A stretch of 64,000 nucleotides of DNA, taken from contig OZ076409.1 of NCBI GenBank assembly GCA_964187785.1, forward strand, positions 31,992,001-32,056,000, read 5' to 3'. A model generated the notes under the pieces. The model was not told the origin of the DNA. It did no database searches and saw nothing but the letters and a program-made list of their open reading frames with translations. This DNA comes from Amphiscolops sp. MND2022 (lineage: Eukaryota). Positions 9,191 through 64,000 of this stretch are shown piece by piece. The position numbers and the translations under genes were made by a program. Each line of letters starts with the position of its first letter. Position 1 is the stretch's first letter.

Positions 9191-9222
9191 TGACGGGAAC
9201 GCTATTGAAACCATCGGAATTC

Positions 9223-9250
9223 GAGAGAGAGAGAGAGAGAGAAAGAGAGA
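9223..9250. repeat. (GA)n microsatellite
   Basis: Direct reading of GAGAGA run. Confidence 0.9.
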
Positions 9251-12481: not shown

Positions 12482-13142
12482 TGTAAAGGCTGATTCTAAT
12501 AGCTAAGGCGTTCGAACCGTCGGCCTGTCCCTGGTATGAATTTTACCCAAGAATTTTAGCAAGGTCCCCGAAAACTTACCTAAGCCGTGTTGAAAACTGA
12601 AGAATTTGTAACTTGCTTTAAAGTCATTTTCCGTTCTGATATGGTCATACAAAAACTCAGATACATCGACTAATAAGGTAAACAATATACAAGCCAATCT
12701 TCATCTATAAATATGAATTTGTGAGTGAATATTCGTTGGTTTACTACAAGTAGCCCTACTTTCGTACTCAGTAAATAGGCTATGCTGGGAACCTTCTGCC
12801 TATCTAAGTAGGCTAATATTGACTACAAATACTGAAATATATTCCAACAACACGTTCATAAACAAATATGAGGGCTAATGTGGGTTAAACGGGAAATGGG
12901 AGGAAATAAGTAGCTCAAAAGTGATATATTGCAAAGGTCCAAAAAACTCTCCAGAAAAGATCATTTTGAACAAAAATTTCTCATTTAAAAAAAAAATTTA
13001 TCTTCTGTCCCGGTAGTTTGGCTCAAATGAGGAGGTGACCTCTTTATTTGGGGTTCATTCCTTCATTGGGATCAGAGTTATGGCTCTCCAGAGTCACCCA
13101 ATTTGAGATTCGTTTTTGTGCACTGGTTTTCAGGCCTTTTCA
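12482..13142 (-). repeat. 3' LTR of BEL/Pao element
   Basis: Aligns over its length with 19700-20365; TG...CA termini with short inverted ends. Confidence 0.88.
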
Positions 13143-23990: not shown

Positions 23991-24336
23991 CGCCACGCCT
24001 TTATACAAAATTACCACAAGAACAAAACACAGCAGATGACTGGCAGCATAAGCTGATCCCAAAACCTACAAAAACAGCAATTTGCGAAACTAAATCAACA
24101 TCACAAATCTCTCAACAGTCAACACTGGAAACTCAATCTGAAGACTTATATGAACTCTTACATGACGCACCAGACAACTACTTTCGACAAAAATCAACCC
24201 ATCCCAAAATCGACTCAACTCCATAAGTTCACCACACTTCAAAAAACCATGTCACAAAAAAACTTGGAATGATGAAAAACAACCCCTTTTAGATGAAGAT
24301 CTCACTGAATACATACAATTTGACAAGGAACGAAAC

Positions 24337-27300
24337 TTGTCATATCTCCCAATTTCAACCTCCTTAACCTTGAAGAGGAAACGCCACATGTACTACATAC
24401 CGATGGACTTCGAACAACTCACACTTGATGGTCTTATTGATACAGGAGCGCTTACAAGTGCAATCTCTGAACAACACTTCAATAAAATCAAGCTGTTTGC
24501 AAGCGAAGCCATTAAAAAAACTGGTCCTCCACCAAACTTCCAAATTATGGTGGCCAATGGACAACTAGAAGTCCCCGTCGGTACAGTATTACTTGAATTC
24601 GAAGTGGCTGACTTCATGTTAAAGGAAAACTTCACGATCATGAAAAATCTACCAAACCCACTCATTAGATTGTGTTTTGTTAGAAGGAATAATGCAAGCT
24701 TCGATGTCACTCAAGGCATCTTAACTTTTCCTAACCTCTCAATGCAACTTAAACCTGATGCACAAATAGCAATACGCCAAGCAACACCACTGTTTGCCAA
24801 AAACACCTACACCCTACAACCAGGCGAAAAACTTGCGATAGCAAGCAAAATGCCTCACCTGATGGACCATGACGCGACAGGAATTGTCACGCCATCACAA
24901 CAATTTGAAAGCCATAATAGCATTTTTATCACAGCATCTCTTAGCACTGTTAATAACATGGCCATCAGATATCAAATCATCAACTTTTCCGAATTACCAT
25001 ATACAATAACCCTTGATACCCATTCAGCGGATTTCAAGATACTTACTCCAGAACAAATCAACCACACCCAATCGATGGACCCGGCGTTGCTATCCTTCAT
25101 GATACAATATGAAGAAACAACAGAAGTCTACATAAATGAGTCTACTTCTAAAAGTCTCACAACCCAATGCCGAGCAGGATGCAAACTGGTGCCCAACCCC
25201 TGAAGAACCAAGCGACCCAGCTACTTACACCCCAATTCAACAACGAATATACAACGAACTTCTCGAAATAAAAGAGTTCGTGAAACTAAACCCTCATAAT
25301 GATGAATAATCCCGGGAAGCTTTTCTTTCACGCTTCGATTGGTCTGATTCGACACTCAAACATCAAGAACAACAGAAAAATGAAGAAATCCTCATCGAGT
25401 TTCCCGATATCTTTGCCAGACACCGTTTCGATATTGGCACAAACCGTGAATTTAAAAAGAAACTAACTCTGAACGATGACAGACCTGCTTATAGCTAAAG
25501 CCTACCAACACCGATTAACCTAAAAGATGACATCACGGTAGATCGTGCACTTCTCCACAAACTCGGGGTTATCACAACTCTACCTTAATAATAACCACCC
25601 GGTAAGCACTTTATCGGAGGCAGCCTAACACATGGCAGGAAAAATTTTTTCTACAAATTGGAATGCTCCCAGGATTACCACTACCTTCAAATAGCAGATT
25701 ACCAATCAATCCAAATGCTAGCTATCAATTTTGCAAGCAGAACATTTGCTTATATTCGTCTTGCCCAGGGCCTCAGCAGATCGCTTTCTGCATTCTCAAG
25801 CTTCTTGAGAGAGTACCTCATTAAAGCAGACCAATGTGCCCAACATGTAGATGACATTGGAATAGCTGCCAATGACACAAAACAGTTGTGTACAAACATC
25901 AGAACCGTCTTTGAATGCATACGTAACGCGAGATTGAAACCGTCCATGTCAAAGTGACATTTCGGAGTCAAACAAGTCGACTTCTTGAGACGTACAATCA
26001 CACCACATGGGGTCGCCCCTCAAGCCGGCCAAGTGAAAGATTTCCTCTCAAAACTTCGTTTTCCCAAATCAAAAAAGGCGTTACAAAGATACATAGGATT
26101 CCTAAACTATTATCGAAACTACATTCCACGCCTTTCCGAACGGCTTGCCCCGTTCTTCAAACTCCTTAAAGAAACTTCCAAGTTTTATGAACCAACAAAT
26201 CTGGTAGAAGATTTCATAAACCTCAACAATTTTCTTGAACTTTCTTGCCAATTAGCATTGAAGAAACTTTTGAAAACAAGCTACTTATAGTCATGTCCGA
26301 TGCAAGTTTCATGGCAGCAGCATATGCAATCATGATACAAGATGACTCGAATCAAAAACTACAATCCAAGCGCAAAACATATGCATTAATAGCATTTGGC
26401 TCAAAAACATACAATCCAACACAAACGAAAAAGTCAATATTTGCGGAAGAATTCCGTTCTATATTTTTTGCATTTGTTGAATTTGGACACCTCATGTGGG
26501 GAAACATCTTCACAGTCATAGTGTTCACAGCCGATCGCTCAGTAACTCCATTTTTTCAAACAAAAATGATTCTTCCAGCACTCTGGAACTCATGCGATTA
26601 TGTCTTGCAATACAATTTCGTAACCGCCCATGTTGCTGGTTCAATGAACACCGCAGCTGACTTCTTCTCTAGAACAGAAGTTGACCCAATTGAAAAAGTC
26701 GAAAAGACCATTCGTAATGATATTCACACAAAAGCAATTGAAGTGATTATTCAATCATCTGGCATCGTTGAAGAAGAACAAATCTATGTTCTCCCCGACA
26801 ATGAAATTGACCAAAATCAACTTTGGGAAGAAAAACAAAATGAACGAAATCATGCTCAAACCGAAATCCACAATGACCCAGAAAATGAGGTCGCTGAACT
26901 ACAACAATTTCACAAACCCACATCAGATTTGATCTCAGTATCATCAGGGTACTTCAAAAACAATGCAAGAATTCGTCTCGAACAAAATAATGACATAGTC
27001 CTCAGAAACCTGAGAGCCAAAACCGAAGGCGAAAATGAGAGGCTTTTGGCAAAAATGAATTGGCATCTGATTAGAGAAAGCAACATTACCTTCAAAACAT
27101 ACCAAGAATAGAAATTAAACAGGAAGTCCCTACCAGAAAATATTATACAACACAGGAACCACATCTCACAACCAAATTCTGCTACCAATCCAACTTCTAG
27201 ATGAACTTCTTCAGGCCCTACATGGTCATAATTCAAACCATCCAGGAATCACGAAAATGATACAGGAAGCAAGACAAAAGTATTACTACCCATGTCTAGC

Positions 27301-28730
27301 TAAATACATCAAAAAATGGGTCAATAATTGTCAAACTTGCATTCAAACAAAACGTAATAACAACGATCTCTTTAGAACCGATCTCCGCAATTGCCCCGAA
27401 TTGGATCTTGGCCCAGAAGACATTCCACAGATGGATATTTTACCAAACCTTCCTCCCAGCGGTGGTTATGATCATTTCATCACAACAACAGATGTCTTCT
27501 CGAGATACTTGTTTGCCTATCCTGTAACTCGCATTACTGCAACAGCGGTATCGAGAGTCATCATGTACATACAATGCAAGCACACCTACCTTCCAAAAAC
27601 CATAATTACTGATTTAGGAACTCAGTTCGACGCACAAGTAACTAATTAAATTGCAGCAGTGCTAGAAATCGAGCTCAAACACGCAACAATGAAACATGCC
27701 CAAACAAAAGGACTCCTTGAGAGAACTCATGCATCTGTAAAAACACACCTAAAAGCCGCAATAGGCGAGTTCAGGAAAAATTGGCAGTCCTTAATCACAA
27801 CACGACATACTATGCATCACTCGGTTGTGAGCCTTCACGAGTCTTCCATTGTCGGATAGGATACCTCACAATATCCTAGACTATAAACTTGGATATGATC
27901 CCAATCCAAGATATCAACCACAAACTGACATTGCCGAGGAAATTCATAAACGAATGAAAAGTCTTCTCGATCAACCAAAAAAGAATAATTTGCAATCTTA
28001 CCTCAAGTACGAAGCCTGTTACGATAGAAAAGCAAAAGCAGCTCCACTTGAAACTACGGACTATTACGATATTCTGAACCCAAAGGATGATACGCAAGCA
28101 ACAAAAATACCAATCCGAGAATCCAGATGGTGTGGACCGTATCACGTAGAAAAAGTGCTTCATATCAATAACTATTTTGCCCGGAGTCTTAGAACTAATA
28201 AAACGCAACTACTACACAAGATTAGTCTGCAAAAATTCACTCCGCAAGCCCCATCAGCAAACATTTTTGTTCGTGAAACTGATTGGCAAAAAGATGACCA
28301 AATACCAATAGCAAATGATGATCTATATGCCCAATCATGGAACACGAACTTTGGGTCTAACCGTTTGATGATGGTCCGTCAGAGTATCCACAAGATGCAG
28401 AAGACACGGAATACATCCCAATACAAATACCCGAGAAAAAACCGCCCAACCTCCCCAGGATTTTCAAAAAAATGGCAGATGCCCAGTGGAACAGACCATT
28501 GAATCAGATAAAAATCATGCAACTGAAATCCCTCAGCAAATCAGTGAAGATGATCAAAATACCCAAAAAAACCATAAAGATACCAATAATTCATCGGAAA
28601 ATGACATTCAAAAACCCCAGAAAAATTCAAAAATACCTCATTGCAAAAAGGACCCATAAACACCCGTGGTGAAAATTACAACTTACGTCCCAATCTCAAC
28701 CCAAATTACTCTGATTCTTACAGATACTAG
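24337..28730 (+). pseudogene. Ty3/Gypsy pol (protease, RT, RNase H, integrase), frameshifted
   Basis: LIDTGALTSAIS (aspartic protease); LAQGLSRSLSAFSSF...QHVDDIGIA (RT); VMSDASF (RNase H); YYYPCLAKYIKKWVNNCQTC, MDILPNLPPSGGY, ITDLGTQF, LERTHASVK (integrase); ends NLRPNLNPNYSDSYRY*. Confidence 0.92.
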
Positions 28731-41700: not shown

Positions 41701-42353
41701 GGTAGTCGTGGTTTGTGCCAGTATTTCAGAGAGTTTTACTGCGTGCCTTTCCTTTACAATCACTTTTTATCAATGGTTGCAACTTACACCTGATGCGTTC
41801 CTCTCTTCTACACCCTATAAAAGTTTTTTGAAAGTTTTTTTCACGTCTTGAGTACACTAAGCAGCATGTAAAGCAACTTAGTAGTGCTTGAACTTTGTTC
41901 CAGTTCACGGTCAACTCACGGTCGAAAAACAACAGAAGAATTTGCTGGCAAATCCTGCATATAATGTCAACCGACTCACGGTGGAGACAAAAAAACTAAC
42001 TGAGGAAATCACTGAAAAATCATTCCATATAATTTTTGGGGTGAAATTTTATCACCAACTAGTGAACGCACGCATAACATTGTAATTTTAGTTCAACGTG
42101 CAATCAGATGTTTTAAAACAGGCGTTGAAGATTTAATTAAACAGCGTGCGGATCAGTAATACCATGAGAAAAATGTTGCAAGATTAGTTTGATTGAGGTT
42201 GAAGTTGAGGCTAAAATTGAGACGTGTCAGAAGACGCAACGGGCAGGAAACTGAAGCACAAAGGAACGTATATTGATAGTCTTTCGGCGTCATCATTGTC
42301 GACGAATTGATAAACCATTGATACGCTCAATTTCATTGTCTACAAGTTTAGAA

Positions 42354-45199
42354 ATGTCAGAATTTGAAAAATTCAGTCTACCACTAGATGAAGGGAAAGA
42401 ATGCATTGATTCCAAAATTTTAGACTTTATATCAGGACACACGTTACAAAATTGTCAACGGAAACTTACTTCAATTGTTGCTGAAATGGTCGTAGGGACC
42501 ACTCTGAAGACATTCGATCTTATTCAGAAATTACCAATTAAAGGGCAGCCCCAGGGATCTGTTTTTGTTGCATCGAAAATAATGAAACTTTTAATTGTGC
42601 GAGGCTATAGAGACTTACCTTGGAACGAGAAGAGAAGAGAATTCGTTGCAAAATATTTTAACACCAATTTTTTTCCCGACGTCGGTACTTTTACGAATGA
42701 TAAATTTTCTTCTCAACATGGGATGGTTATAATATTACGCAGTTGCAACTCAAAAAGTGTCAAAGAACTATTAAGAAAACTTTTTGGACCCAAGTCTTGA
42801 ATTTTGCTAGAATGCATGGTATACATATTCACGTATTAGCCACAATTCTCAAAGAACAGCATCAGAAACGTAGCGCGTGGCGGAAAAGGAGCGCAAGCGG
42901 TAATCACATTCGAGACTTGTTCACGGGTCTTTTGGAGGACAGGGGCTACTCCGAGTGCTTTAGGTACAAACGTTCAATCAAAATGAAAACTGGAAACATA
43001 GAAGATATCCTCAATGCAATTCGACAACAGCTAGTTTCGGTTGACTTAGGAGGCGGTTGCCTAGTACCGTCAATTCGTCACATCAATAGAGCGACTAGCC
43101 TCATAATGAAATTGTTTGTTACAATATGCGAGCCTGAGCGAACCTATTCTGGATTTCGAGTCAATTTACTGGAAGCAGTGACGTTTGCGTCATTAGTTTT
43201 ACTGCAAAAAATCAATCTTGAAGGCCTTAAAACTGATATTTGGGGTGACGGTTGTGAAATAGGGGAGTTGAGGTAACGCGTCTAGCATTCAGAATTTTGA
43301 ACACCACAGTTAGCAGCCAATCATCGAAAGCTGTCTTCTGTTTTGCATCCTATCGTGGCCAAGATGGCCGATGTGCAATGGAACACATTTTTGGACCGTC
43401 TATCCTGGGTAAGCAAGAATCTGGATGGCTATACTGAACGTTCAACTGAACGTTCAAGTTCTCATCCCTCACAACTTCCGATATTTGTATGCGATAAAAA
43501 TTGCCTCCCCACCTGGTGCTCAGATGTCGATGAAAGACGCACATTTTTGAAGATCCCATTCAGACAACATGTTCCTAGAGAAGCATTATCAAGCATAATC
43601 GATGTCAGAACAGCCTGCCCAGACGCTACACACATGATAACGCGTTGCACCGAGAATGATATTAGAAAAGTGGCTCAGAAGGCAATTAACGACAAACATC
43701 TCCGGGAAACTTTAGGCATACAGCGCTTTGAAAAAAAGCTGACCAGCCGAGAAGCTAAATGACCGTCTTTTCAGTTCAATATTACCCACAAAAACCTAGG
43801 TAAAATAACCAGGAACAGTAGGACCACTGTCATTAGCGGGGTCGAATGCACTCACAGTTATAGCTGAAACAGAGAACTTAGAAATGCTCAACTTGGAACA
43901 ATCACGAACCTTTATAACGGAGTTTGGACGACAGAGACACGTCTTGGAAGTGAGGATGGATACAACTTGGGGGCTGCAAAAGTACTGAAGTCTTTACATC
44001 CACATTTATTTGACAAACGGGACCCCATAAATCCAAGAAACGAAGAAAGATATATGTCAGTGTTTGAAGCTTGTGAGCTTCAACGACAAAGTTTAAACCA
44101 GTGTGCTATTCTGTTGAGAAGTCAGGGAACATTTGATGTCGACACTCACAAACGATGGGCTGAAACATACTTTCAAATTAATTTGCTTCTCTTCGGGCGA
44201 AAGGGGTTGTCACCATACAAACTCAAGCTTCCATTGATAGCCCAACTAGTTGAAAGGGGATACATTGAGAGGCCATGGAATCACCTCTGAGAAGGCTTGG
44301 AAAAATCGAACCACAATGCCAACAGAAATTTTGAATCCTGAACCACGAGAGGCGGTGTCTCCATTTATCATCAAGATCCATTATTTCCGGATACTGCGGT
44401 TTCATTTTGCCGGTTCCTGGATATTTCTCCAACAATTTCCGAAAAAAATATCCAATGTCATTGAACATGTAAGAAAAACACTCACGACTGAAGAGACTCT
44501 CGAGGGTGTCAAAACTTATCTAGACATATGTAGAGCTCCCCTGGCGGTACTCTGCCTTGCTGTTGGCGAAACGAGAGAATTTTGCGACCTTCTAAGAGGA
44601 TTGAGATTTACAATGGTAGATAGGTTCAAGCGTGGTCTCACACAGGATTTCCTCAAAGATAAAAATTCCGAAATGGGAGGTGTCGTTTATGAGAAAGAAA
44701 ACGCAGAGAACCTAATGAAATCCCTTTCAAATATCTTGAATTTTTACGTTATTGTCAAAGATGAAGAGAACCTTATTAATGCGACCGGCGAAAAACATCA
44801 ATTGAAAGCCATGGGAACAAAACTGAAGCTCCATAGACATTGTTCCGCGAACGAGTTGTCAACAGTGAAAATGAAAATTTTGCAACAAAAAAGAAGTTAT
44901 CTTCAGCAGCTTTGGCCTGCAAAAGATTTGCGTCGGGGGGGTTTGATGTTAATCACTGTTGATTACGTACTCAAAATGAAAAAATCTACCGTATTTCTAG
45001 ACCCTGAAATATATATATCATAATGTCTGGACTCTTGATCAACCGGATGAAAATTAATGACATGCGACCACTCTTAATGGATCAAATAGATGATAACAAA
45101 TCAATAGAGAATACTTCTGCCATTGTTGCATTGAAAAAAATCCGAAACGCCTTAGTGAAACTTAACAAATTTCGAGCTGATGATCGTCTTTCAATGTAA
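42354..45199 (+). pseudogene. RAG1/Transib-like DDE transposase with C-terminal BRCT-like domain, frameshifted
   Basis: DIWGDGCEIG/GVEVTRLAFRIL...SSQSSKAVFCF (cf. RAG1 D600 SCDG...RFSF); CPDATHMITRCTE (cf. DALH/DELH); SPYKLKL...ERGYIERPWNHL*EGLEKSNH (cf. TNYFHK...EGNESGN, E962); tail LRGLRFTMVDRF...EMGGVVY...VDYVL...LDPEIY. Confidence 0.7.
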
Positions 45200-48100
45200 T
45201 TTTTGCAAGTGCTTGTTCATTACTTGATTTTGAAGACATATACTTTTATCTTTGCTTGTGGTAATAAATTAGCTTTTGAACAATTTTTTCTCGGAAATTT
45301 AGAAGAAACTCATTTATTGAAAACTAAAAAAGGATTTCTCAAAAAAGTAGCAGTTTTTCGACCTTTATAGCAACTGGTAAAACTTTGGCGGTCCTTTTCA
45401 CATTTGGGGTGGTAAATAAAACAGTTTGAAAAATGAAGTCCGGAGCGTGCTGAAACCACGTAGTTTTCTAACAAGTGGGATGGTTACAGGAGTAAAAAAA
45501 CACCAGTTTTGTAAAAATTTGAAATCCTGAATAGTCTTGAATTTTATTGCAGTGAATTCCACTCTTTTGGAAAGCGTTCCTTGTACTGAAAAAAGCAGTT
45601 AGTGGAATTGAAAAACACATACAAGTACATTGACAGTGGATTCCACAATCAAATGCTTAATTATTAGCAAAACAATCCAAAGGGGTCTTTTCAGTGAATT
45701 ACAGTTCTAAATAGATTTAAATTTCTATTGCAGTCGATTCCACTAGTCTGGAAAGTTTTCTTCACCCTGCGAAAAGTGATATGTGGAATCGACTAACGTA
45801 TTCCAAAACATTGACAGTGGATTTCACAAACGAATGCTTAAACATTTGCAAACCAATTCAAAAGGGGTATGTACAGCAAAACGAATGACATCAGGCTACA
45901 TTAATTAAAATTAACAATTAACGCACTCATAGTCACGACGAAAGAAATCATGAACGAATTTAATGATCAAAATAATCATAAGTTCCAATAATAGAAAACT
46001 TTGATTACGTTTGTCCTAAAAAAATGTGACTTCAGAGAAGTTGTCCAATAAAATAGGTTTTCGCAAGACGTGTGCAACGTTCATCTATCTAAAGTGCATT
46101 TAAAAAACTTTTGGTAGGTCAAAAGTTGAATCATTTTGTGTTCTAGAAGGAGTCTGCTCTCTTTCCGTTTTTCATTTTGCTTAAATATGTTTCCTTTTGT
46201 TTACCATTCATTTGTTCAAATGTATTCATTCACTCAGCACAATTGGAATGAATCTGAAGAAAGTGTCAATTTGGTAAACTTGTTTGTAGTTGTAGCGTCA
46301 TAAAAAAACTGTTACAAAAGTTCACGGAACCGAGAATGCTAATTCGATTTTGAATGGCTGCCAAAGTGGATGTAGGAAATGTTTTTCTAGTTCAGGAAAT
46401 TGATTCTCTGTCGTTCGATCTTTCAATTCAACCGCTTGCTAGTTTCGCTAATTTCAACCGCTGGCCAACTTAATTCAAAAAGCCTTCTTTAAGCCTTTGC
46501 CTGACCTTTGTCATACTAGTTTTTAAAATCAATATCCTTATACGTTGCCTGCTTCCTCTGTTCATATTGGTTAGTGTCTTTTTTTTAATGTTTTACCTCT
46601 ACAATTAGGGATACGAAATAAAAATGTTAGTTACAGTTGAAAAACTTTGTGCATCCACCGTCAGTAGAAAAAGAGTCAGTTGTAGAAGTTTTTTGGTACA
46701 CACCGTGAGTAAAGTTTTGTTCTGCTTTTGTATAGAAATTTTTTGTATCCACCGTGAGTGGTGGAAAAAACCTGAGTTTGTATAGAAAAAAGTTGGTACA
46801 CACTGTCAGTAAACAGTCCTCTTGAATTTCCATAGGGAAAGTTTCGTTTCCCCCGAGTAGAAAAACAAATCTGAGTTTGAACTGCCATCTTCTTTGAACA
46901 GGCCTGAGTGAAAAACTGTTCACCATTTGTAGAAGCAACTTTTCGTTTCCACAGTGAGTAGAAGTAAAAAGCCCCCCAGCATGTTTACTCTCCCCCCCCT
47001 CAATTCGTTAAGGAGTGAGTCAAAGGAAATGAGTCTTTCAATGTAATTTTTGCAAGTGCTTGTTCATTACTTGATTTTGAAGACTTATACGTTTATCTTT
47101 GCTTGTGGTAATAAATTAGCTTTTGAACAATTTTTTCTGGGAAATTTAAAGAAACTCATTTATTGAAAACTAAAAAAGGATTTCTCAAAAAAGTAGCAGC
47201 TTTTCGACCTTTATAGCAACTGGTAAAACTTTGGCGGTCCTTTTCACATTTGGGGTGGTAAATAAAACAGTTTGAAAAATGAAGTCCGGAGCGTGCTGAA
47301 ACCACGTAGTTTTCTAACAAGTGGGATGGTTACAGGAGTAAAAAAACACCAGTTTTGTAAAAATTTGAAATCCTGAATAGTCTTGAATTTTATTGCAGTG
47401 AATTCCACTCTTTTGGAAAGCGTTCCTTGTACTGAAAAAAGCAGTTAGTGGAATTGAAAAACACATACAAGTACATTGACAGTGGATTCCACAATCAAAT
47501 GCTTAATTATTAGCAAAACAATCCAAAGGGGTCTTTTCAGTGAATTACAGTTCTAAATAGATTTAAATTTCTATTGCAGTGGATTCCACTAATCTGGAAA
47601 GTGTTCTTCACCCTGTGAAAAGTGATATGTGGAATCGACTAACGTATTCCAAAACATTGACAGTGGATTCCACAAACGAATGCTTAAACATTTGCAAACC
47701 AATTCAAAAGGGATATGTACAGCAAAACGAATGACATCAGGCTACATTAATTAAAATTAACAATTAACGCACTCATAGTCACGACGAAAGAAATCATGAA
47801 CGAATTTAATGATCAAAATAAACATAAGTTCCAATAATAGAAAACTTTGATTACGTTTGTCCTAAAAAAATGTGACTTCAGAGAAGTTGTCCAATAAAAT
47901 AGGTTTTCGCAATACGTGTGCAACGTTCATATATCTAAAGTGCATTTAAAAAACTTTTGGTAGGTCAAAAGTTGAATCATTTTGTGTTCTAGAAGGAGTC
48001 TGCTCTCTTTCCGTTTTTCATTTTGCTTAAATATGTTTCCTTTTGTTTACCATTCATTTGTTCAAATGTATTCATTCACTCAGCACAATTGGAATGAATC

Positions 48101-50715
48101 TGAAGAAAGTGTCAATTTGGTAAACTTGTTTGTAGTTGTAGCGTCATAAAAAAACTGTTACAAAAGTTCACGGAACCGAGAATGCTAATTCGATTTTGAA
48201 TGGCTGCCAAAGTGGATGTAGGAAATGTTTTTCTAGTTCTGGAATTTGATTCTCTGTCGTTCGATCTTTCAATTCAACCGCTTGCTAGTTTCGCTAATTT
48301 CAACCGCTGGCCAACTTAATTCAAAAAGCCTTCTTTAAGCCTTTGCCTGACCTTTGTCATACTAGTCTTTAAAATCAATCTCCTTATACGTTGCCTGCTT
48401 CCTCTGTTCATAATGGTTAGTGTCTTTTTTAATGTTTTACCTCTACAATTAGGGATACGAAATAAAAATGTTAGTTACAGTTGAAAAACTTTGTGCATCT
48501 ACCGTCAGTAGAAAAAGAGTCAGTTGTAGAAGTTTTTTGGTACACACCGTGAGTAAAGTTTTGTTCTGCTTTTGTATAGAAATTTTTTGTATCCACCGTG
48601 AGTGGTGGAAAAAACCTGAGTTTGTATAGAAAAAAGTTGGTACACACTGTCAGTAAACAGTCCTCTTGAATTTCCATAGGGAAAGTTTCGTTTCCCCCGA
48701 GTAGAAAAACAAATCTGAGTTTGAACTTCCATCTTCTTTGAACAGGCCTGAGTGAAAAACTGTTCACCATTTGTAGAAGCAACTTTTCGTTTCCACCGTG
48801 AGTAGAAATAAAAAGCCCCCAGCATGTTTACTCTCCCCCCTCAATTCGTTAAGAAGTGAGTCAAAGGAAATGAGATTTTCAATGTAAATTTTGCAAGTGC
48901 TTGTTCATTACTTGATTTTGAAGACTTATACGTTTATCTTTGCTTGTGGTAAAAAAATTAGCTTTTGAACAGTTTTTTCTCGGAAATTTAGAAGAAACTC
49001 ATTTATTGAAAACTAAAAAAAGTAATTCTCAAAAAAGTAGCAGTTTTTCGACCTTTATAGCAACTGTTAAAACTTTGGCGGTCCTTTTCACATTTGGGGT
49101 GGTAAATAAAACAGTTTGAAAAATGAAGTCCGGAGCGTGCTGAAACCACGTAGTTTTCTAACAAGTGGGATGGTTACAGGAGTAAAATACACCAGTTTTG
49201 TAAAAATTTGAAATCCTGAATAGTCTTGAATTTTATTGCAGTGAATTCCACTCTTTTGGAAAGCGTTCCTTGTACTGAAAAAAGCAGTTAGTGGAATTGA
49301 AAAACACATACAAGTACATTGACAGTGGATTCCACAATCAAATGCTTAATTATTAGCAAAATAATCCAAAGGGGTCTTTTCAGTGAATTACAGGTTAAAT
49401 AGATTTAAATTTCTATTGCAGTGGATTCCACTAATCTGGAAAGTTTTCTTCACCCTGCGAAAAGTGATATGTGGAATCGACTAACGTATTCCAAAACATT
49501 GACAGTGGATTCCACAAACGAATGCTTAAACATTTGCAAACCAATTCAAAAGGGGTATGTACAGCAAAACGAATGACATCAGGCTACATTAATTAAAATT
49601 AACAATTAACGCACTCATAGGCACGACGAAAGAAATCACGAACGAATTTAATGATCAAAATCAACATAAGTTCCAATAATAGAAAACTTTGATTACGTTT
49701 GTCCTAAAAAAATGTGACTTCGGAGAAGTTGTCCAATAAAATAGGTTTTCGCAAGAAGTGTGCAACGTTCATATATCTAAAGTGCCTTTGTAAAATTTTT
49801 GGTAGGTCAAAAGTTGAATCATTTTGTGTTCTAGAAGGAGTCTGCTCTCTTTCCGTTTTTCATTTTGCTTAAATATGTTTCTTTTTGTTTACCATTCATT
49901 TGTTCAAATGTATTCATTCACTCAGCACAATTGGAATGAATCTGAAGAAAGTGTCAATTTGGTAAACGTGTTTGTAGTTGTAGCGTCATAAAAAAACTGT
50001 TACAAAAGTTCACGGAACCGAGAATGCTAATTCGATTTTGAATGGCTGCCAAAGTGGATGTAGGAAATGTTTTTCTAGTTCTGGAATTTGATTCTTTGTC
50101 GTTCGATCTTTCAATTCAACCGCTTGCTAGTTTCGCTAATTTCAACCGCTGGCCAACTTAATTCAAAAAGCCTTCTTTAAGCCTTTGCCTGACCTTTGTC
50201 ATACTAGTCTTTAAAATCAATCTCCTTATACGTTGCCTGCTTCATCTGTTCATAATGGTTAGTGTCTTTTTTTAATGTTTTACCTCTACAATTAGGGATA
50301 CGAAATCAAAATGTTAGTTACAGTTGAAAAACTTCGTGCATCCACCGTCAGTAGAAAAAGAGTCAGTTGTAGAAGGAGTTTTTTGGTACACACCGTGAGC
50401 AAAGTTTTGTTCTGCTTTTGTATAGAAATTTTTTGTATCCACCGTGAGTGGTGGAAAAAACCTGAGTTTGTATAGAAAAAAGTTGTAACACACTGTCAGT
50501 AAACAGTCCTCTTGAATTTCCATAGGGAAAGTTTCCGAGTAGAAAAACAAATCTGAATTTGAACTGCCATCTTCTTTGAACAGGCCTGAGTGAAAACTGT
50601 TCACCATTTGTAGAGGCAACTTTTTGTTCCCACCGTGAGTAGAAATAAAAAGCCCCCAGCATGTTTACTCTCCCCCCTCAATTCGTTAAGAAGTGAGTCA
50701 AAGGAAATGAGTCTT
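45186..50715. repeat. Three tandem copies of a ~1.84-kb unit (45186-47032, 47033-48873, 48874-50715)
   Basis: Unit starts GTCTTTCAATGTAATTTTTGCAAGTGC at 45186 and 47033, with a variant at 48874; each unit ends GTCAAAGGAAATGA; non-coding. Confidence 0.95.
45545..45880. repeat. ~180-bp tandem repeat with palindromic GTGGAWTCCAC cores (present in each triplicated unit)
   Basis: ATTGCAGTG.ATTCCAC...ACATTGACAGTGGATT.CAC...AAAGGGGT, two units. Confidence 0.8.
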
Positions 50716-51048
50716 ATACTACGATTCTTACCGTATAATGATTGAAATGGTGATGGGTGTTCATTACGAAGTGAATCATTAGGAAGTGAGTCATATACTA
50801 CGATTCTAATCCTGACAAATAAAGTATTGGGGGATACTTTCTAAGAAGTAGGTTTGGGGGATAACAGAAAAGACCCGAATTCGATCTTCATATCTCAATT
50901 TAAGAGTGAGCAATCCAATATTTTATGGTTCTGATGTCAAAGATCAATTCTTTTTGATACTCATACATATATTTACATAACAATTGAAAAAATCAGTACT
51001 TGCGCAAAACTTCAAGGTGAAACTATAGTGTTGTGCTTGTTTCTAAAG

Positions 51049-53700
51049 ACTGAATACAACTGCCCCGATTGTTCGTACAAGTCGAATCGACGCACGAATT
51101 TTGAGAGGCACCAAAAAACTTGCGGTACGAAGCAGCCGCCAAACAAAGCCTGTCCCCGTTGCAAGAGGGCCTTTGCCACCCCTGTAACCCCCAAGCGGCA
51201 CATCGGGAATGCGGGGTACTGCACGACAGACATAGCCCGAAAAAAAGGAAATTATAGTAAGTAGACCATCTATGTCAACGATTTGCCTGTGAGAAAACGA
51301 AAACATTTTTGTTACTTGGTTTAGCATTCACGATGGTGGAAAAATACTGTTTTTTGGCGGAACTGTTCGATGAGTAGTTTGAATGTTGAACATAAAATTT
51401 CGTAGGAACAGCCGACCCCAGCAAGAAATATCCTTGCACATCCTGTAGTGAAGAATTTGCCCGGAGTGACTTCCTACAGAGACACCTGACACGCTTTCCC
51501 CTCCACAAAGAAAGCGACATGGCAATGACGAGCGAGCCAAGTCGACGGGCGTACGAATGACAAGTCACTTCGTAAAGCACCTAGATGACATGTCGCTTTC
51601 AGAGGAGCCATGGAACTGCTGCAGGTGGGACAATGAGCAAGAATATGAAATTGGCATGGTCATGAAAGCATTTTCTCGTAGCCAGCCAATACTGTGGAAG
51701 AACGGGGCAGTGAACTAGCGAGGTTTGAAGCTCCCAGTTTTGCCCGCTGAGGACTTCCTCAACCAAGTAGAGTTCTTGCTGCAGCACGTGGCTATTCCTA
51801 CAGCGAAGCTTGCTGCAAAGTCATCACGACTACCACCTGACCAACAGGTGAACATATACCGCCATTCTTTGTACTTTTCGAATTTCACAAACTTTTTTTA
51901 AAAATTATAGCGTTTTACCATTAGTGGTAAACGGTATTGTATATGTTGAACCAAAACTTATTGAGATTTAGTATCCCTTTGACATCGTTCGCAGCGAATT
52001 CCACAGTAAGTTATCTAAACATTGGTAAAGTAATTTCAGAGGAGTATGCTTGAAATATAGATTTTTTGAATTTTAGGTCAGGTCTTTAGCAGTGAGCGAG
52101 TACATGGAGTACCTCTGCAGCGCCAACGGGGACATTTCCTGTCAATGTCATTGACATTTCACTTGAACGGAATGTATGTTTTTTTTAATCATATCTTGGA
52201 ACGGCTCATATTGGAAAAAATTAGTCTTTGAATTTGGTGTCTTTACAGTGACAAAAGTCAGTGAAATACATGATGCACTCTTATGTTTTTCAAATTTTTA
52301 GCAACCAAATGGATTTTGAAAATGGCGACCAACGTACGGAGTCTTTGTTCTGAAACCGTTTGCTGATGTCTTGTCGTTTTGCTTCAGTTTTTTCAAGTAC
52401 CGGATTTCGTCAGACACTGTGCGGCCGATCATCTGGCAGATGTGTGTGTGGATGTAGCAGGGCACATCGCCGAGGCTACATCCAATTATTTGCTGGTCTC
52501 AAACGACTTTTCTAACACGGCTGCCTTTTATACTCTCGCCCGAGGGCAGAAGATCCTCTGGCTGGTGGAGCCGACAAATGCCACTTTACAGCTCTTTGAG
52601 GAGTGGAGCAATAACCCCACAAACAGGTAAATGTACTCAAATCATGTACTTAAAACATGCTCATCGCGAAGTCATCATTTTGAGAAGAGCAAACTATCAA
52701 TCAAACACATGATTCAAAATCATTGAACCAGTTGTTTCGTTTATATGTATAATAATTTGTCTTTATTTAGTCCAACTTCCTTCCATTCTCAAGGTCATCA
52801 TTTTGAGAAGAACACATTCTCAATCAAGCACAAGATGCAAAATCATTGAACCAGTTGTTTCGTTTATATGTATAATAGTTCGTTTTTATTTAGACCTTCT
52901 TCTTTTGGGAACCTGAAAGCGCTGAAAGATGGGGTCCACGAACTTGTGATGGAAGCAGGCGACATCCCGGTTTTGCCTGCACGCTGGCCACACGTAGTTG
53001 CGACAAAAGGCGACTCCATTGCTTTTGGCTCCAACTTCCTCGCTGTTACACATTTCCCTCTGATTGTGGACAGCCATTTCAATGCCCGTCAGCAAGAAAT
53101 TGATGACGAAGAGGTTTTTCCTGGAGTTGTTCGTATTTATGCTGTGTTATAGTTTAAAATACGACAACTCCAGCGGATACTCAATTCCCTGAGAGGATCA
53201 TGGAGCCCCCTCTTCTCAAGCCAACAACTTACGCTTCTCAAAGAGCAGATCAGCAGTGAGCTCGACGCCATCAAAATGGTAATGAATGTTTGTTAATAAT
53301 GAATGGGAACTGATTATGTAGGAAAAATAAATCATCTCTTCCACACACTGGGTTGTGAAGTACGAAATGTATTGGTTCTGGTTTCGAAACGTTTAACAAT
53401 TTCATTGTCTTTTCTTCAAATAAAAATGCAATTTTGCACGTTTCTTTTTGAATTCGCTCTACTCAACATTGTCAATGCCTTTTGTTACCAGGTGTATCCA
53501 GCTTTCAATTTGCATCAACTGGGACTGAGGGATCCAGAGAAGCCCTATCGCGACCCAAAAAGGCCAGTGTACGCCTTCACAGAGACAATAAAGGAAGTGC
53601 GAATTGGACCATTGCACCAGGCCGAAATCCCCGAAGCAATGCAGAAGACCAGCACACGTGACCGCAGCATCCTTCAAAAGGAAACATACCCCGAACATAC
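51049..53700 (+). pseudogene. Spliced gene: 3 C2H2-like zinc fingers, KDM2/KDM7-like JmjC domain, start of ELM2; disrupted and truncated
   Basis: Exons ~51049-51256, 51406-51847, 52077-52173, 52388-52626, 52894-53278, 53492-~53700 have GT-AG ends and compatible phases. CPDCSYKSNRRTNFERH; YPCTSCSEEFARSDFLQRH; PILWKNG..*RGLKLP; FYTLARGQKILWLVEPT...LFEEWS; LPARWPHVVATKGDSIAFGSNFL; EVRIGPLHQAEIPE. Stops at ~51717 and 53150. Confidence 0.78.
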
Positions 53701-54135
53701 CCCTTTTGAATTGGTTTGCAAGTGTGTAAGGATTTGTTTGTGGAATCCACTGCCAATGTATTGGTATACGTTAGTCGATTATACATATTGCTTTTCGCAG
53801 GATAAAGAATACTTTCCAGAATAGTGGAAACCACTCCATTAGAAAATAAATTCTATTTAGAACTTATAGTTCACTGAATGTACCCCCTTTGAATTGGTTT
53901 GCAAATGTTTAAGCATTTGTTTGTGGAATCCACTGTCAATGTATTGTTATACGTTAATCGATTCCACAAATCACTTTCCGCAGGATGAAGAATCCTTTCC
54001 AGAATAGTGGAATCCACTGCAAAAGATAATTAATTCAATTTAGAACTAAGAATTCACTGAATGTACCCTTCTTGAATTGGTATGCAAATGTATAAAGATT
54101 TGTTTGTGGAATCCACTGCCAATGTATTTGCATAT
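53690..54135. repeat. Inverted array of the same ~180-bp GTGGAATCCAC repeat
   Basis: 53878-53945 is a near-exact reverse complement of 45807-45870. Confidence 0.85.
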
Positions 54136-54504
54136 GTTTGTCATATCCACCTACCGTTTCTGGTTTTCACCTACCGATGCCATCAGATTTATTAGACCGT
54201 TTGTACCGAAAGTTTTGAAAGTGCCACAACCTAAGTAACAAATCAGTAATACGCATGTGGAATACGCATTACTTGAAATTATCTACTGGAGACTTTCTCA
54301 AGAATGTAGTCACAAGTAAAAAAAAATTTCGACATCATTTACTGTAACAAGGACAATATTACTGTAACAATCGATTTAAGAAAAAAGAACTTTAATAGAA
54401 CAAAACCAACAGAAATACTATTCAGTTTTTTATGGTAACAAAACAGACGTTTTTTGGAGACCTAATCGCACACTTACTCACGGTGGATACCAAAAATGCT
54501 ACCC

Positions 54505-55790
54505 CTATTGGTCAACAAAGTATTCAATGTGCGCATGTTGGGTGTTATGTCTAAAGCTTTGTCGATGATCTTCAAGATTTTTGTGGTGACCTTCGGTTGT
54601 AGTTATGTGGCATCTGATTGAGAACATCATAAAGTCGCGCTGTTCCGTGATTTTCAAAGTCTTGATCAATGTGGCAGGCTCATCTTCAAGCACATCTGCA
54701 ATGATGTCCCAGTTCTTGCCCAATATAGAATCTAAGCTGTTATAGCTTCCCAAGTTTCCCGTTTCAACTTCCAATAAAAACTTCACGGTTTCTTTGCTTG
54801 AGTGCGACTTGAACCCAAAGACACGTTTTGTGAGCTCCGTTGCAGGGATCATATTTGTCACAGTTGATGATTTCTTAAACGACAAACCAACACATCTCTT
54901 GATTGTCGAAAAGACTGCAAACGTTCTATCAACACCGTTATCAAGAGTGAAAAAGTTTAATCCCACGTTTTCGAAATTCCGAGTTTTTCAACGAACAGTT
55001 GTTGACCGGCATCCTAAGGTCGCAGTCTTCATCGTTCACGGATACCATTATTGCAAATGGTTTCAACTTCTGCGCACTATAGTATAAATCTTCAACTTTG
55101 AATTCCATTCCAGACAAAGTAATGATGGATCCTTCGACAAATTCCATTGACACATGGTACATAACTTAATTTGACATCAACATCGATTTTCGGGATCAAT
55201 GTTGAAAAATCTATTTCCGGTATTTGTGTTTTAGTTCTTTTCTGTTTTGGTTCTTCCCGATGTTCCTGCCTCGTCTCTTCAGCTTTCTCGTTGTCTTCCG
55301 CTTTCTCATCGTGAACATGGATGTCTTCCACTGAGTTCTTCAAATAACAATAGGGGATAAATCTAAACATTTCGTCCATCTCCACGACACACTCATGGGT
55401 AAATGGGTCATTCGTCGAATTAGTTCTCGTTTGAATTTTTCCATGGGAATCAATAAAACAATGCCCCACACAATCACATTCGGGTAGCAAGAATGTCACG
55501 GGCTCGTTTTTTTTGCCGCCAGTTTGTGTTATACGACAGGGGTTTAGAACGCTTCTTCGACATGACTGGTTGCGAATGTCGATCTTTTCTAGTGTTCCAC
55601 CTATTTGGGTCAGTACGCAATTCTACAGGAATTCCTATTGCCTGCAGACGATTGTTCCAGTCGATCCATTGGATTTTCAGAGATCTAATGACTTATGAAC
55701 GCTATTATCTTCGCAGACTCCCAAATATAAGTTTCGGGGTGGAGGATTTGAACAACTTCGTATAGTTTAAAAGCTTGCAAAAGCATTGTA
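54505..55790 (-). pseudogene. Frameshifted gene with a putative N-terminal Tudor/chromo-barrel-like domain; remainder unknown
   Basis: KLYEVVQILHPETYIWESAKIIAF/IRSLKIQWIDWNNR resembles Tudor-knot/Agenet patterns; ORFs 55685-55888, 55092-55499, 54941-55162 and 54505-54966 join by frameshifts. Confidence 0.45.
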
Positions 55791-56244
55791 GTGGAGTTTA
55801 AAATTGACCGCAACGGGAAGAAACACGTGAGCTTCCTCTGAGCACAAACTATTCGAATTTGTGCAAAGTGATTACCAGGTGCCAACACAAAAACTGCGCA
55901 AAAGTGAGGCTAATTTCACGGTGATGGACCTAAAAAAGGTGTCATTCCTTTCGAGCGCCTAATAAAAGAATTATCACTAGGAATTAATTTATCTAGTGAG
56001 TGTTAGTATGTTCAAATAGGTATTTGAGTCATGGAAAGACTCAATCACCGTATTAATCTGATAACACTTACTAGTTAAAGCTATTAATTTAGTCACCGTG
56101 AGTGTGCAATATGTGAAATCGACTCTTCTGCTGTTTAGTAAAATGACGCTTTTCCAAAAAAACTATTAACATTTTAATTTCTTTTTACATCATAATGTTG
56201 ATTCATTCATTGAAATCCATTGTCAATATTTGAGCTCCAAGGTT

Positions 56245-58010
56245 ATGAATAATTCCAGCATGCCTGACAAAAATTCAACTCTCGAATTGACACTCTTGTG
56301 TCCATCTCAGACTTCTACGCCTGTGCAATACTCACATCAACGATCTACCGACTGGAATCTGCCACCTAGAAAATTTACTGCGGAATGCTCACAATCTGAC
56401 ACAGATTCCTTTGCCGCCTCAGAACCTCTTGCAACAGACCCTCCGTCGCGGAATTTACTGCCTCACCAGAACGATGCCACCAGAGCAATGAGCCCCCGAA
56501 TAATGTGTCACCCCATATCAATGAGCTACCCGAGAAGCGTCCAAATGACTCCCAGTGCAGTGAGGATAGTTTAAGTAATAGCCAATCCAAATGCGCGAAA
56601 GTTACTTACATTGACAACAACGTGTACGAAAGCACGTTGACTAAACATGTGAAGGCATCGAAAGAAGACGTGGGACTAGTACAAAAAGCTAAGTTCTTTC
56701 GATGCATAATTACAACCCTGTTCCATTTTGCGGTACCACCTATGCTTGAAAGTTCCATCAGGAATGTCCCGGTACACTCAGTTGTGCAAATCGTGATGGA
56801 TCACGAAGAAAATTCATTGAGTGACTCCCTCAATATCTGTGTGGAACACATAATTGGATCAACGGAACGAACAGTTCACAAAGTACACGGAAATCTTGTT
56901 GAAGCATTCAAAGTATATTCTACACAAACTCGGCCATATTTTGTTACCAACGACACCAAATTAGCCATTGTTCGATACGAAAAAGACGACAAACGTCCAA
57001 TTAATACAGAGTTATTCTTAGTGAATTCAATTGGTTGAAAGGACTCCCACGTTATATCTGTTGTGGATCTTTTCATTTCATGCAAAAAAGCAGAAAAAAA
57101 AGAACAAAATACATTGAAAAGTAAAGTCGCGGAACTGATGCCACTTTCCAATGACCCCTGCCTCAAAATCGCCAAGCTGAAACATGCAATGACTTTGGTT
57201 CTTTCGAATGTCGAAGGTTTCGACAGAGATGAGGTGAGAAACGCTGTTCGCGCCCGCCAAGACCAGCAAAGGTACACTCGCCAGTCAGCCAGGGCATTGA
57301 TATACTTTGAACACGTTTCTGGAAAAGTTGCTACTAACTGTCTTGAGTCGAGAGTGGCGGCAATTTTCCAGCGACAAAAGTGGACTTCGCTAGAGGATAA
57401 AAACCATGACGTGAAAAAACTGACAGCGCAGTTATTGATTCTCTCTAACAACCAGTCAATTAGAAAAACCTCGCAGATACCTGAGAGCAGTAGAAATTGG
57501 TGTGCTGGACTGGCCCAAAACTTGCCGTATGAAAAACAAATTATGTTGTCGCAACGTGGCGAGACGCAGCTCTGGCCTGGAATCTGTTTTGCCAAAAAGA
57601 CAAAATTTGGGAGATGTGTGATTGCCCTACAGAAATTTTCAAAGGACGACATTTTAATGGATTACCATGGCGAGGTGTATTTGAACGTGTCATTGAGCCA
57701 GGTCTTCGAGAAAGAAGGTGTGGAACAGGAGTTCGTTCTGGAGGTTAAAAGTGGCGCCTCTAGAAGAACCACTGATGCCTCGAAAGAGATTTGCCCCTTC
57801 ACCCAATTATTCGCAGCCCTGGACGCCTTGCCAACCACTCGCAGTTGAAATCAAACGGCGCCAACATGAAGCCTATATTGATTGAGTTGTTTCAAAATGG
57901 CAATAAGATTGTAGTGTTCCTCAAACGTTCTACCATTTGAGCAGCTCCGTTTTGATTACAATGACCCTATTGCCAATCAGTTTTTTCAGGAACGTGATGA
58001 TTCCCAGCCG
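56245..58010 (+). pseudogene. Tyrosine-recombinase-like domain fused to a PR-Set7/SETD8-like SET domain, frameshifted
   Basis: SET: GRCVIALQKFSKDDILMDYHGEV, DASKE...GRLANHSQ, EQLRFDYND (cf. GRGVIATKQFSRGDFVVEYHGDL, GRLINHSK, EELLYDYGD). Upstream YR-like boxes MLESSIRN, VEH, LFLVNSIG, KLKHAMT, QQRY. SET is confident; YR is weaker. Confidence 0.75.
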
Positions 58011-58809
58011 ATATTTGACTGATGGAATCGTCAGAACACTCCGTTTTCAAAACAATTATCTTTTTGTTGTTGTGTATTCGTTTGTTCTTTACTTTCGTTT
58101 TAATTTCACTTGCGATTTTGTATTTAAACACTGATTGCTACAGATACAAATGTTTTTTTTTCGTAACACTGGAACAAAACACCGTGAATAACAATTTCAG
58201 TGAATCCTTGCAACGTCTTCTTCACCTAAATCTAGATGAGGGTAAAGATAATGATAGAGATTAATAATTTGATTTCCATTCATCTTTTGGCTTGTAGTTT
58301 ATTTTGAAAGTTTGGTATCCACCATGTGTTAATTGAAAACGAAAACTAGTTATACCTAAAATACACGGAGAAGCTGTGGGTGAAATTTTGATATCAACTC
58401 TCTTGATGTAATAAATTCTGAAGTAGCGTCACATTCAGCGTGCAATTTGACTAACAGTGATTTGACGCTACTTTTAAATATACTAGATGACTAAAGTTGA
58501 ATTTGTAGAATGGTAGAATTGATAAGGTCCCCGTTGCAGTCTGCTTGGAAGTATGATTCAATCAAAGAATGAAAAAAAAAACAAGTCAAACTAAAGTGGT
58601 AAAGCGGTGCGTGTATCAAAATAAATTGATTGACAAAAACTCTGTAGTAATAATTTTGAACCAAATGAAAAAAATCTGAATTTTGCTTTTTGTGACACTT
58701 GCTGACTCTGAAAATGTTCCTCATTCTCAAAACTGAACACGTGAAGGAAACACTTTTAGGCACTGAAGTACATGAACTCCACTTCTTTTCGTTGCGTTGC
58801 TTCGTTACC

Positions 58810-61049: not shown

Positions 61050-62345
61050 TTGTTAATTAATTCAAATCTTGATAACCAGATAGTTTCCGTCGATATGCTC
61101 GAACGGTCTCTGAAAAGCAAACCGAGAAGAGATCCACCAGAGGACCATGAGTTGGCTGAAGAGTCCATTTTGCAGACTGACGACAACAATTGTATCTCAG
61201 AGCAGGACTTCGAAGTAAAGTTGGAAATAAAGTGTCTAAGCGTTTGAGAGATACCGAACATTGTCAGAGAGAAATCCTTAAATTGATAGAGAACTTATCA
61301 GCAAAGGTAGATCGTTTGTGTAATTCGATATCAATCATCGGAACCTAACTACCTTAACTCTAGAACCGAAATCAACGGTAATTTGCAAGATATTTCGATA
61401 TCCGAACACATCGATATTCCCGGACCAAGTATGAGTACTCCAACATGGTGACAGAAGTATCAACCAACCAACAGGAAAACAACCATCAACGATCATTAAG
61501 CCTGCCACCTCCAAACCAGAGGTACCCCGATGATATCATTGACAATTTACTACAATCGTTGCAAACGGCAACTAACTGCAACTCCGTTGTCCCCAGGCGA
61601 CCCAAGGCCATGTCTACCACCATGCCAACATTCGACGGTAAAACAGACAAATTTGAGGACTTTGAGGACCTTTTTCGAGCAAGCCTACGGTATACCCGAA
61701 CATCACAGAAGAAGGAAAAATACATTATTTCCATTTCACCCTGAAGGTCGAAGCGTTGCAAACATTCAGGAATATGACTGAAGCAACACGAGGACACCTC
61801 AACGACATCCTCGCAGGCTTCTGCCGCCGATACTTGAGACAACAATCAGTGCCAACAGCCCGCTGCAAATGGGAAAACTTGTCATTCAACCGAAGCCAAC
61901 AAACATTCCCAGATTTCTTAGAGCAGTATCAGAAGTTGGCCCAGGAGGCTTTCGGAGAGGATGCCCCCCGCTTCATAGAGACCTCCTTCTATGCCAAGAT
62001 GCCAACCCACCTCAAGAGGGTTTTAAGCCAAGCCCGACTCCAAGCAGAATCATACGAAGCCATGGTACAATACCTTGAGAGAAATCGAACTGAACGGACT
62101 GGCCACTACTGACAGCCCATCAATTACAGGGGTACACAACCTCGAACCAAACCTACAACAACAAGAGAAACATCCCAAAACAACGGGAACATGTTTCGGG
62201 TGTGGCAACACAGGACACTTGCTACGAAACTGTCGCAAGTCCAAGAGGGACAAACGATCCCAGAGGAACCAAAACCCAAGCTACACTGTGTGAAACTTGC
62301 GGAAAATGAGCCATGAGACCAAAGAATGCTACTAGGGAGCAAACT
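61050..62345 (+). pseudogene. Ty3/Gypsy gag, frameshifted
   Basis: MPTFDGKTDKFEDFEDLF; QQTFPDFLEQYQKLAQEAFG; CFGCGNTGHLLRNC and CETCGKMSHETKEC knuckles. The non-coding 59.5-61.0 kb region is probably LTR/leader. Confidence 0.85.
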
Positions 62346-63429
62346 GGGCAAACCACCCAACATGGTGGAAAACACCCAAAACAACACCACTAAACAATTT
62401 CCCGTTCCCCCAACAATCACAAGCCCACCCAATGCAGCACAGCAGCCACACACCATGGCACCAACAGATACCGAATGAAAAAACTTCTAAAGCCACGTCT
62501 TGCCTTCGGGGATTACATCGACTACAGATACTACACCATATCTGAACCTCAGAAGAACCATGATTTAGAAATGTTCGCAGAGTGTTCGGGTGAACCATCG
62601 ACGGACTGGCAGCGGAGATGGCTCATTAGGCGCCTCATAAAGGTCAGTAAATCCACCATCGACAAACTACAATACCCAGAATGGTACCACGAGAACCCTC
62701 AACTGCATAACTGAACTAGACGCCCACTTCCACCCAGTTATACGCCTGACACCTACATACACGACCCAGACTACGGCTGTGACCCTTGCCACAACCCTGA
62801 CTTATATTACCAAGTGACTCTAACTTTCAAAGAGACGGTCAACGTACCCTTCCATGATTTCGTCAAGAAAACGAACATGAACGTAGACATCACCAAGAGG
62901 AAAGATGTCGACAATGATAGTCATTCATCCGCATTCTAAGCTGAGGAACAAGATCCGGAGATACAAGTTATCGTCACGCCACGTGCGGTACAACCCAGGA
63001 CAATACTCAAACCGCACATCTCCAACCTCACCGAGAACAGGTCACCACCAAGAACACCTTCACACAAAAACGAAATCCGGGCAGCGATGACATCATCACC
63101 TTCATCGCCCCAAAGTCCAGAACACCGGATAAAGTAAACAACAAAACAACCAGAAATCTCAACCGCCAAGGTGCCAGACGCACACAAAGCCGGGGACTCC
63201 CCCACCACCCCTGCAAATCGAACCATTGCTGCCCCAACCCAAAACTAACATGCGCGTTCGACCAGAAACCTCATCCCAATACCAACGATGACTTCAAACC
63301 TGGAAATATTCAACAAGATGATCACAACTCGCTGCTAATACTAGACCCAAACCAACTAGCAAATATCACCACTACAAACAATCCAACGGGGGAACAATAT
63401 CTACGACTATTTTCACCAATCACCCTCAA

Positions 63430-64000
63430 ACAGAAGAGGCGCATGCTTTTTTCACCAATGGACTTCCAACACTTCTCCATAGAGTGTCCTTCTCGGGAGC
63501 CCTGGTCAACTGCATGGCCGAGAACGAATACCAAAAAACATGAGTCCCAACAACATCTTACAGGAAGCTGACCCACCACCCTTCAAACTGCAAGTCGCAA
63601 ATGGCGATATAGAAACCCCAATCAAAACAATCCAAGTAGAGTTTGAAATCGGCGACTGGACGTTCCAGGAAACGTTCATCGTAGCCAGTAAGATCACAGG
63701 TCCCATCCTAGGCCTTACCTCCCTAAAAAACAGCGCCATCCTAGATGCCAGTCAGGGACTCCTACATTTCCCCCTCTTAACCTGCGCAATAAACCCTGCA
63801 TCTGACGAACAACCAGCAAAACCACACAAATTGATCATCCCCAAACAAACAACGTTGGCCCCTGATCAGTGCATCACTGTCGAAGCCCTGGTCATTATCA
63901 AATCAATTGCAGACACCACTGGCGTTATTCACCCAACGTCAGCCTATGCAGAAGACAAACCAATAGAGCTAGCCAGCTCGCTATCCACAGCCCATGAGAT
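63430..64000 (+). pseudogene. Gypsy pol start (protease region), runs off the window
   Basis: KQKRRMLFSPMDF...SGALVNCMAENEYQK...FKLQVANGDIETP...PILGLT, paralogous to 24337-25050; the catalytic Asp appears lost. Confidence 0.8.

Follow-up and report, generated by a model that had tools for sequence, protein, structure and literature searches.

Does a transposon that already encodes a DDE transposase carry a second recombinase as well? The question is raised by a broken gene at positions 56245..58022 (+) of a 64,000-nt stretch of DNA from Amphiscolops sp. MND2022 (GenBank assembly GCA_964187785.1, contig OZ076409.1, positions 31,992,001 to 32,056,000; hereafter the window). A first-pass annotation recognized boxes of a tyrosine recombinase (YR) upstream of a SET domain and proposed that the YR was either the true integrase or a catalytically dead DNA-binding module targeting the methyltransferase. 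We find that the gene, 643 aa when intact, encodes a fusion of a YR-like domain, a helical region and a SET domain, and that it is cargo of a 17-kb cut-and-paste transposon with DDE-type ends. In the explanation that we prefer, with a probability of about 0.55 for the whole of it, a dead half-YR acts as a DNA-binding module that aims SET at the element's own repeat arrays. The core of this explanation, a dead YR fold joined to SET on a DDE element, is highly probable.

The motifs on which the annotation relied are present in the window: MLESSIRN with its ATG at 56742, VEH, LFLVNSIG, KLKHAMT at 57174 and a Tyr codon at 57273. The window copy of the gene is dead. LFLVNSIG is followed by a TGA stop (57036-57038); the 5′ part has a 146-bp deletion after 56365, small indels at 56436-56480 and a 6-bp deletion after 56694; the 3′ part has a 1-bp deletion after 57793 and lacks 8 bp at ∼57920-57928, with the frameshifts falling in SET, whose motifs start at 57609. 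As expected for a decaying copy, omega of the window YR-like part against an intact copy is 0.97; families B and C of the element (see below) differ by a dN of 0.15-0.21, with dS saturated. A search of the same genome with the gene, in which 40 of 70 candidate places were scored (all 87-100% identical), returned 11 other loci. Three of these (L005, L006 and L010) have one open frame from the N-terminus through SET (680 codons from stop to stop; 643 aa counted from the Met region), and the fusion is therefore independent of reading through the breaks. In a distant family the YR-like and SET parts lie within a single 807-aa frame (L264). Uninterrupted frames in natural copies thus bear out the proposal that the upstream region and SET share a frame, and the natural intact copies, not the window translation, were used in downstream analyses. 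The 170 residues upstream of the YR-like domain are rich in Pro, Gln and Ser; in an intact copy they have no Pfam match, including any of the core-binding (SAM-like) type.

The YR-like domain (model residues 1-170; 56604..57107, +) is predicted to fold like the N-terminal half of the catalytic domain in the tyrosine-recombinase/topoisomerase IB superfamily. In a comparison of the predicted structure with 48,161 chains, the nine best all came from this superfamily, topoisomerase IB being among the nearest folds, and all covered the same range: the box I helix, the beta hairpin and the subsequent helices. The superpositions have an rmsd of 3.3-5 Å at 7-20% identity. Aligned by profile with 78 XerD-like sequences, residues 35-146 (P 0.024) scored above 40 of 40 shuffles, in the same register. 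The profile match is absent against this genome's own YRs; an undoubted YR scored lower still (14.5), so the test is insensitive. Pfam revealed no integrase-type family and no DUF3504 in the domain or in 67 homologues, the family profile had no significant match among PDB sequences, and Foldseek against PDB and BFVD gave none at E ≤ 0.001, with integrases as weak rows only. The best ESM Atlas value, 0.77, is a lead only; one row at 0.75 is a chordate SET cluster of 613 aa. No relative was confirmed among 71 candidate stretches in viral contigs (metagenome contigs were outside this search).

The helical region that follows (model residues 171-286; 57108..57455, +) has a conserved RQDxQRY motif and holds the Tyr at 57273. 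It does not superpose on the C-terminal half of the YR catalytic domain (box II and the nucleophile helix), and profile-profile tests against XerD-like sequences and this genome's YRs were not significant (P 0.45-0.58). In family E only, inspection by eye suggests a likeness between the helical region and the C-terminal boxes that an intact YR has elsewhere in this genome, but the profile test did not support it. Residues 171-240 may be the C-terminal half of a YR in a changed packing or a bundle with no relation to it; either way, the canonical active site has been lost. The YR-like assignment upstream of SET has support in the N-terminal half only, where the fold superposes.

We consider it unlikely that the domain resembles recombinases only remotely or by convergence and serves as a scaffold for protein interaction or nucleosome binding, devoid of sequence-specific DNA binding. 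The large rmsd and low identity, the lack of significant Foldseek, Pfam or PDB-sequence matches and a profile match that is marginal with XerD-like sequences and missing with the local YRs would fit such a scaffold. Against it, the best chains agree on one superfamily and one range, the profile alignment is in register with them and the profile test gives a low score even to a genuine YR.

In the profile alignment Leu50 stands opposite Arg148 of XerD and Ile86 opposite Lys172. The first-pass annotation took the CTT codon of this Leu (56745..56747, +) for a one-base decay of an Arg codon, CGT. Its box I register was right, but the decay was not: Leu is the state of the family, found in 12 of 12 family-A loci, with Arg in 2 of 38 homologue rows. 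The catalytic Lys position in the beta hairpin has Lys in 3 of 44 rows (at most three in the neighbouring columns 84-88). KLKHAMT had been compared to an LRH-type box, which we rejected as well: its His occurs in 3 of 39 homologue rows (in a noisy column), and no conserved His or HxxR was found in either candidate register (columns 170-183, 190-199 and 212-235 of the homologue alignment). The candidate nucleophile, Tyr226, is conserved in 35 of 40 rows, but the superposition on recombinases does not extend to it. Thus, of the R-K-H-R-H-Y positions compared across copies and homologues, those of Arg, Lys and His are not kept, and the loss of Arg and Lys in the family supports the second option of the annotation, a catalytically dead module.

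A domain that lost the canonical tetrad could have gained a different active site (e.g. His60, Arg112, Arg151 and Tyr226) that nicks or relaxes DNA or resolves intermediates of the element. This idea draws on the near-invariance of these polar residues among homologues ∼30% identical and on the closeness of the topoisomerase IB fold. Still, a confident predicted model places Tyr226 in a separate sub-domain, on a long helix, the invariant residues may be structural or DNA-contacting, and the literature searches gave no precedent; we regard a new active site as quite improbable.

The ends of the element point to another enzyme. In the window the host element is a remnant (41753..58799, +, the extent of the match to a full-length copy on contig C5) with both inverted ends missing; no terminal inverted repeat was found for it within 3 mismatches. 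Full-length copies are 16.2-16.9 kb long, with 23-bp inverted repeats of the 5′-CA..TG-3′ type at their ends; the repeat, CATTACWGTGCCAAAAGTGGGT, has 274 exact matches, against 0 in the control. A 2-bp target duplication flanks 12 of 13 insertions (6/6, 1/1, 4/4 in families B and C and 1/2 in family F); the single miss, F1, has no clean 2-bp duplication. Copies are up to 99.9% identical. The element is young and multi-family: at least seven families, with transposases 25-53% identical to that of family A, keep the transposase and the YR-like/SET gene together, in varying order. Inverted ends were also seen paired 0.2-2.5 kb apart (G000:C1:5002016-5002245 and similar), probably as non-autonomous derivatives.

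The window transposase gene (42255..45160, +) is broken, having lost the second-Asp motif by deletion and acquired a stop immediately ahead of the Glu motif; it is of the RAG1/Transib-like DDE type with a C-terminal BRCT-like domain. The motifs GDG, GD(S/T/N)PF and EGxEKSNH-type (D, D, E) are conserved in six families. No Pfam or PDB sequence match was obtained for the transposase; ESM Atlas values of 0.93-0.95 with RAG1 RNase H families are a lead without an alignment. In common with DNA transposons of the CMCT clade the element has CA..TG ends, a 2-bp duplication (2-5 bp in the clade) and a RAG1-like DDE transposase. It differs in its cargo (SET, JmjC and a gene of unknown family) and in having, by eye, neither C(2)C nor H(3-4)H motifs in the stretch from the second D to E in the six-family alignment, motifs that the accessible text of PMC12730594 attributes to the whole clade. 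The transposase is possibly from an unnamed RAG1-like lineage that lacks the zinc motifs of the clade. In the Atlas it is closest to clusters of unnamed cnidarian proteins, and a counterpart of the window gene, with the BRCT-like tail and without both zinc motifs, was observed at L021:526-2937 (-).

Together these data leave a very remote chance that the YR-like domain works as a tyrosine recombinase, be it as the true integrase or as a second recombinase next to the DDE enzyme. The domain has with XerH, XerD, XerA, Cre and lambda Int a common predicted fold of the N-terminal catalytic half, the box I register and YxxxxRP and LF-type motifs; its conserved Tyr is at about the expected distance, and the family E helical region looks, by eye, like the C-terminal boxes of a YR. 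Unlike active recombinases, it is without the catalytic Arg, Lys and HxxR, has no superposable box II or C-terminal half, is fused to SET and is not the source of the insertion footprint. Every family examined has a DDE transposase with intact motifs, and the inverted ends with 2-bp duplications are a footprint of the DDE type, for which the YR-like domain is not needed. The integrase reading was rejected on this ground, and two working recombinases are not supported.

The SET domain (57609..57962, +; motifs GR, DYHG, GRLANH and FDY) is frameshifted in the window copy, whose translation has no SET match in Pfam; an intact copy matches PF00856 at E 4.5e-9. A profile of nine element SETs against solved chains put SETD8/KMT5A (PR-Set7, an H4K20 monomethyltransferase) on top (E 1.3e-17, 67 bits), with MLL1 as runner-up (E 4.6e-10, 42.5 bits). 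The closeness to SETD8 noted earlier is thus upheld by profile, while 'H4K20-type' is a statement about the best match only, and H4K20 is our best guess for the substrate. In the nine-row alignment GR, DYH, RL.N and FDY are invariant or nearly so; relative to SETD8, the element SETs keep GR, YHG, RL.NH and DY at an identity of ∼23-25%, and differ by a C-x2-HP-x3-C insertion and by Phe in place of Tyr334. The Phe, present in 9 of 9 rows, matches the Y334F mutant chain 3f9w and not the wild type. A Phe at this Phe/Tyr switch predicts di- or trimethylation, and the higher methylation states of H4K20 are associated with heterochromatin and repair. In a 27-row tree the 13 element-type SETs cluster together, separately from host sequences of the SET1, MLL, NSD, SUV39 and EZH-like kinds, labels that were assigned by reading motifs; the support, 90/88, does not reach the starred level. 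The host SETD8 was not recovered among the 30 top PF00856 loci and the 16 of 146 motif matches that were read.

Two more cargo genes lie between the transposase and the fusion gene. A spliced gene at approximately 51050..53700 (+) encodes C2H2 zinc fingers, a PHF8/KDM7-like JmjC domain and an ELM2-like piece (Pfam: zf-C2H2 E 2e-6, JmjC_2 E 5e-4, ELM2 E 3e-4). The family-B JmjC exon is closest to PHF8 (E 7e-12), and a PHF8-like demethylase gene accompanies the YR-like/SET gene in the families examined. The other gene, broken in the window (54477..55849, -; ∼430 aa intact), belongs to an unknown family, is present in the families examined and was also seen at L020:2101-3477; its protein has no Pfam or PDB match, and its N-terminal part, judged by eye, may be Tudor-like.

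The element also has arrays of a palindromic motif, GTGGAWTCCAC: in three tandem copies of a 1.84-kb non-coding unit (45143..50711) and in a 183-bp repeat array inverted with respect to them (53673..54159). The window holds 21 matches, 20 of them inside the element (1.0 expected). The motif core occurs 40, 11, 17 and 36 times in families A, B, C and D, 0-1 times in families E-G, where other words are enriched, and four times in 72 kb of flanks.

In the mechanism that we propose, the DDE enzyme alone would excise and insert the element, and the YR-like domain would bind DNA without cutting it and steer the methyltransferase to the element's own repeat arrays. SET would methylate a histone lysine, with H4K20 as the first candidate, probably beyond the mono state because of the Phe at the switch. 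The SET writer and the PHF8-like eraser would then reset chromatin on the element, which would stay transcribed and mobile. A non-cutting DNA-binding role is the most likely one for a YR-like domain that is retained before SET in every family, with MrpR and DUF3504 proteins as precedents. Both the choice of the array-binding protein among those of the element and the sign of the mark, activating or repressive, are our inferences; for targeting and anti-silencing, we consider the chances even.

The module may instead target SET for self-restraint, through a repressive H4K20me2/3-type mark that limits copy number or protects cut ends, or SET may act on a non-histone substrate such as the transposase. 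The switch Phe, with the higher states that it predicts, the low identity to SETD8 and the BRCT-like tail of the transposase speak for these readings. The demethylase companion and the anti-silencing reading of published transposon-borne modifiers (in the accessible text of PMC12730594 and PMC5735166) argue against them, and we see these alternatives as having a minor but real share of the probability.

Parts of this architecture are known. Dead YR-fold regulators are exemplified by MrpR of phage SPbeta (PMC10516654) and by Crypton-derived DUF3504 proteins such as QRICH1/ZMYM (PMC3212892); as far as the accessible text of these papers goes, such proteins keep the whole YR domain and have no SET fusion, while the YR-like domain described here remains on a mobile element, one with a DDE and not a YR footprint. 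SET genes occur on HarbingerS and MuDR in oomycetes, fungi have TET/JBP elements (PMC12730594), and VANDAL/VANC of Arabidopsis couples anti-silencing with tandem target motifs (PMC5735166), again according to the accessible text. Like these systems, our element encodes epigenetic enzymes or regulators and, as in VANDAL, has family-specific tandem motif arrays; it differs in transposase lineage and host, in joining writer and eraser and in having SET on a dead YR fold. Full-text literature searches returned neither this element nor the combined architecture (Repbase Reports and most subscription journals were outside the search and may catalogue them), and the accessible parts of PMC4738411 and PMC9406493 contain nothing on a YR-SET fusion.

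For plants, anti-silencing encoded by transposons is established; for fungi and oomycetes it has been suggested, and for animal-like genomes the picture is much less clear. With writer, eraser and candidate target motifs in one element, the idea is testable with intact natural copies. Half a domain joined to an enzyme would also be a second route for non-catalytic reuse of the YR fold. More tentatively, the 16-30 kb elements might form an undescribed RAG1-like lineage with a full self-targeting chromatin toolkit: a half-YR-steered SETD8-like writer, a PHF8-like eraser and co-evolving family-specific motif arrays. If so, it would parallel, in an animal and with built-in enzymes, the VANC anti-silencing of plants and be a source of programmable epigenetic writers, and the half-YR would be a new class of sequence-specific DNA-binding domain.

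The genome has other genes that combine SET and YR. A separate repeated gene encodes an N-terminal SET, zinc fingers and a C-terminal YR (L259:6865-9999, L268:1834-4131 and 7235-10000, L260:7295-10000). The R, RxRKT and GH..Y boxes look intact and L259 has one long frame; judged by its sequence, it is likely an active SET-YR fusion and is a candidate donor for the dead YR-SET form. In another type (L262:5920-9857, L263:6315-9688), a zinc finger, a SAM-like domain and a YR come after a Suv4-20-like SET; this YR shows the motifs R, HKT, NSIRK, H and Y, and the genome contains 151 YR places related to it. L033 (G000:C3:2082584-2085766) is a single frame of at least 951 aa with three near-identical CryptonA-like YR units at 993-bp spacing. 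L031, a GC-rich DIRS-type YR on a small contig (G000:C1368), is unlike the AT-rich genome and may come from a co-sequenced organism; used as a eukaryotic bridge to PDB or phages, it gave no match. Finally, the element is flanked in the window by decayed LTR retrotransposon frames (13000-18600, -; 24100-28500, +; 61400-64000, +), which by their motifs we take to be BEL/Pao-like and Gypsy-like.
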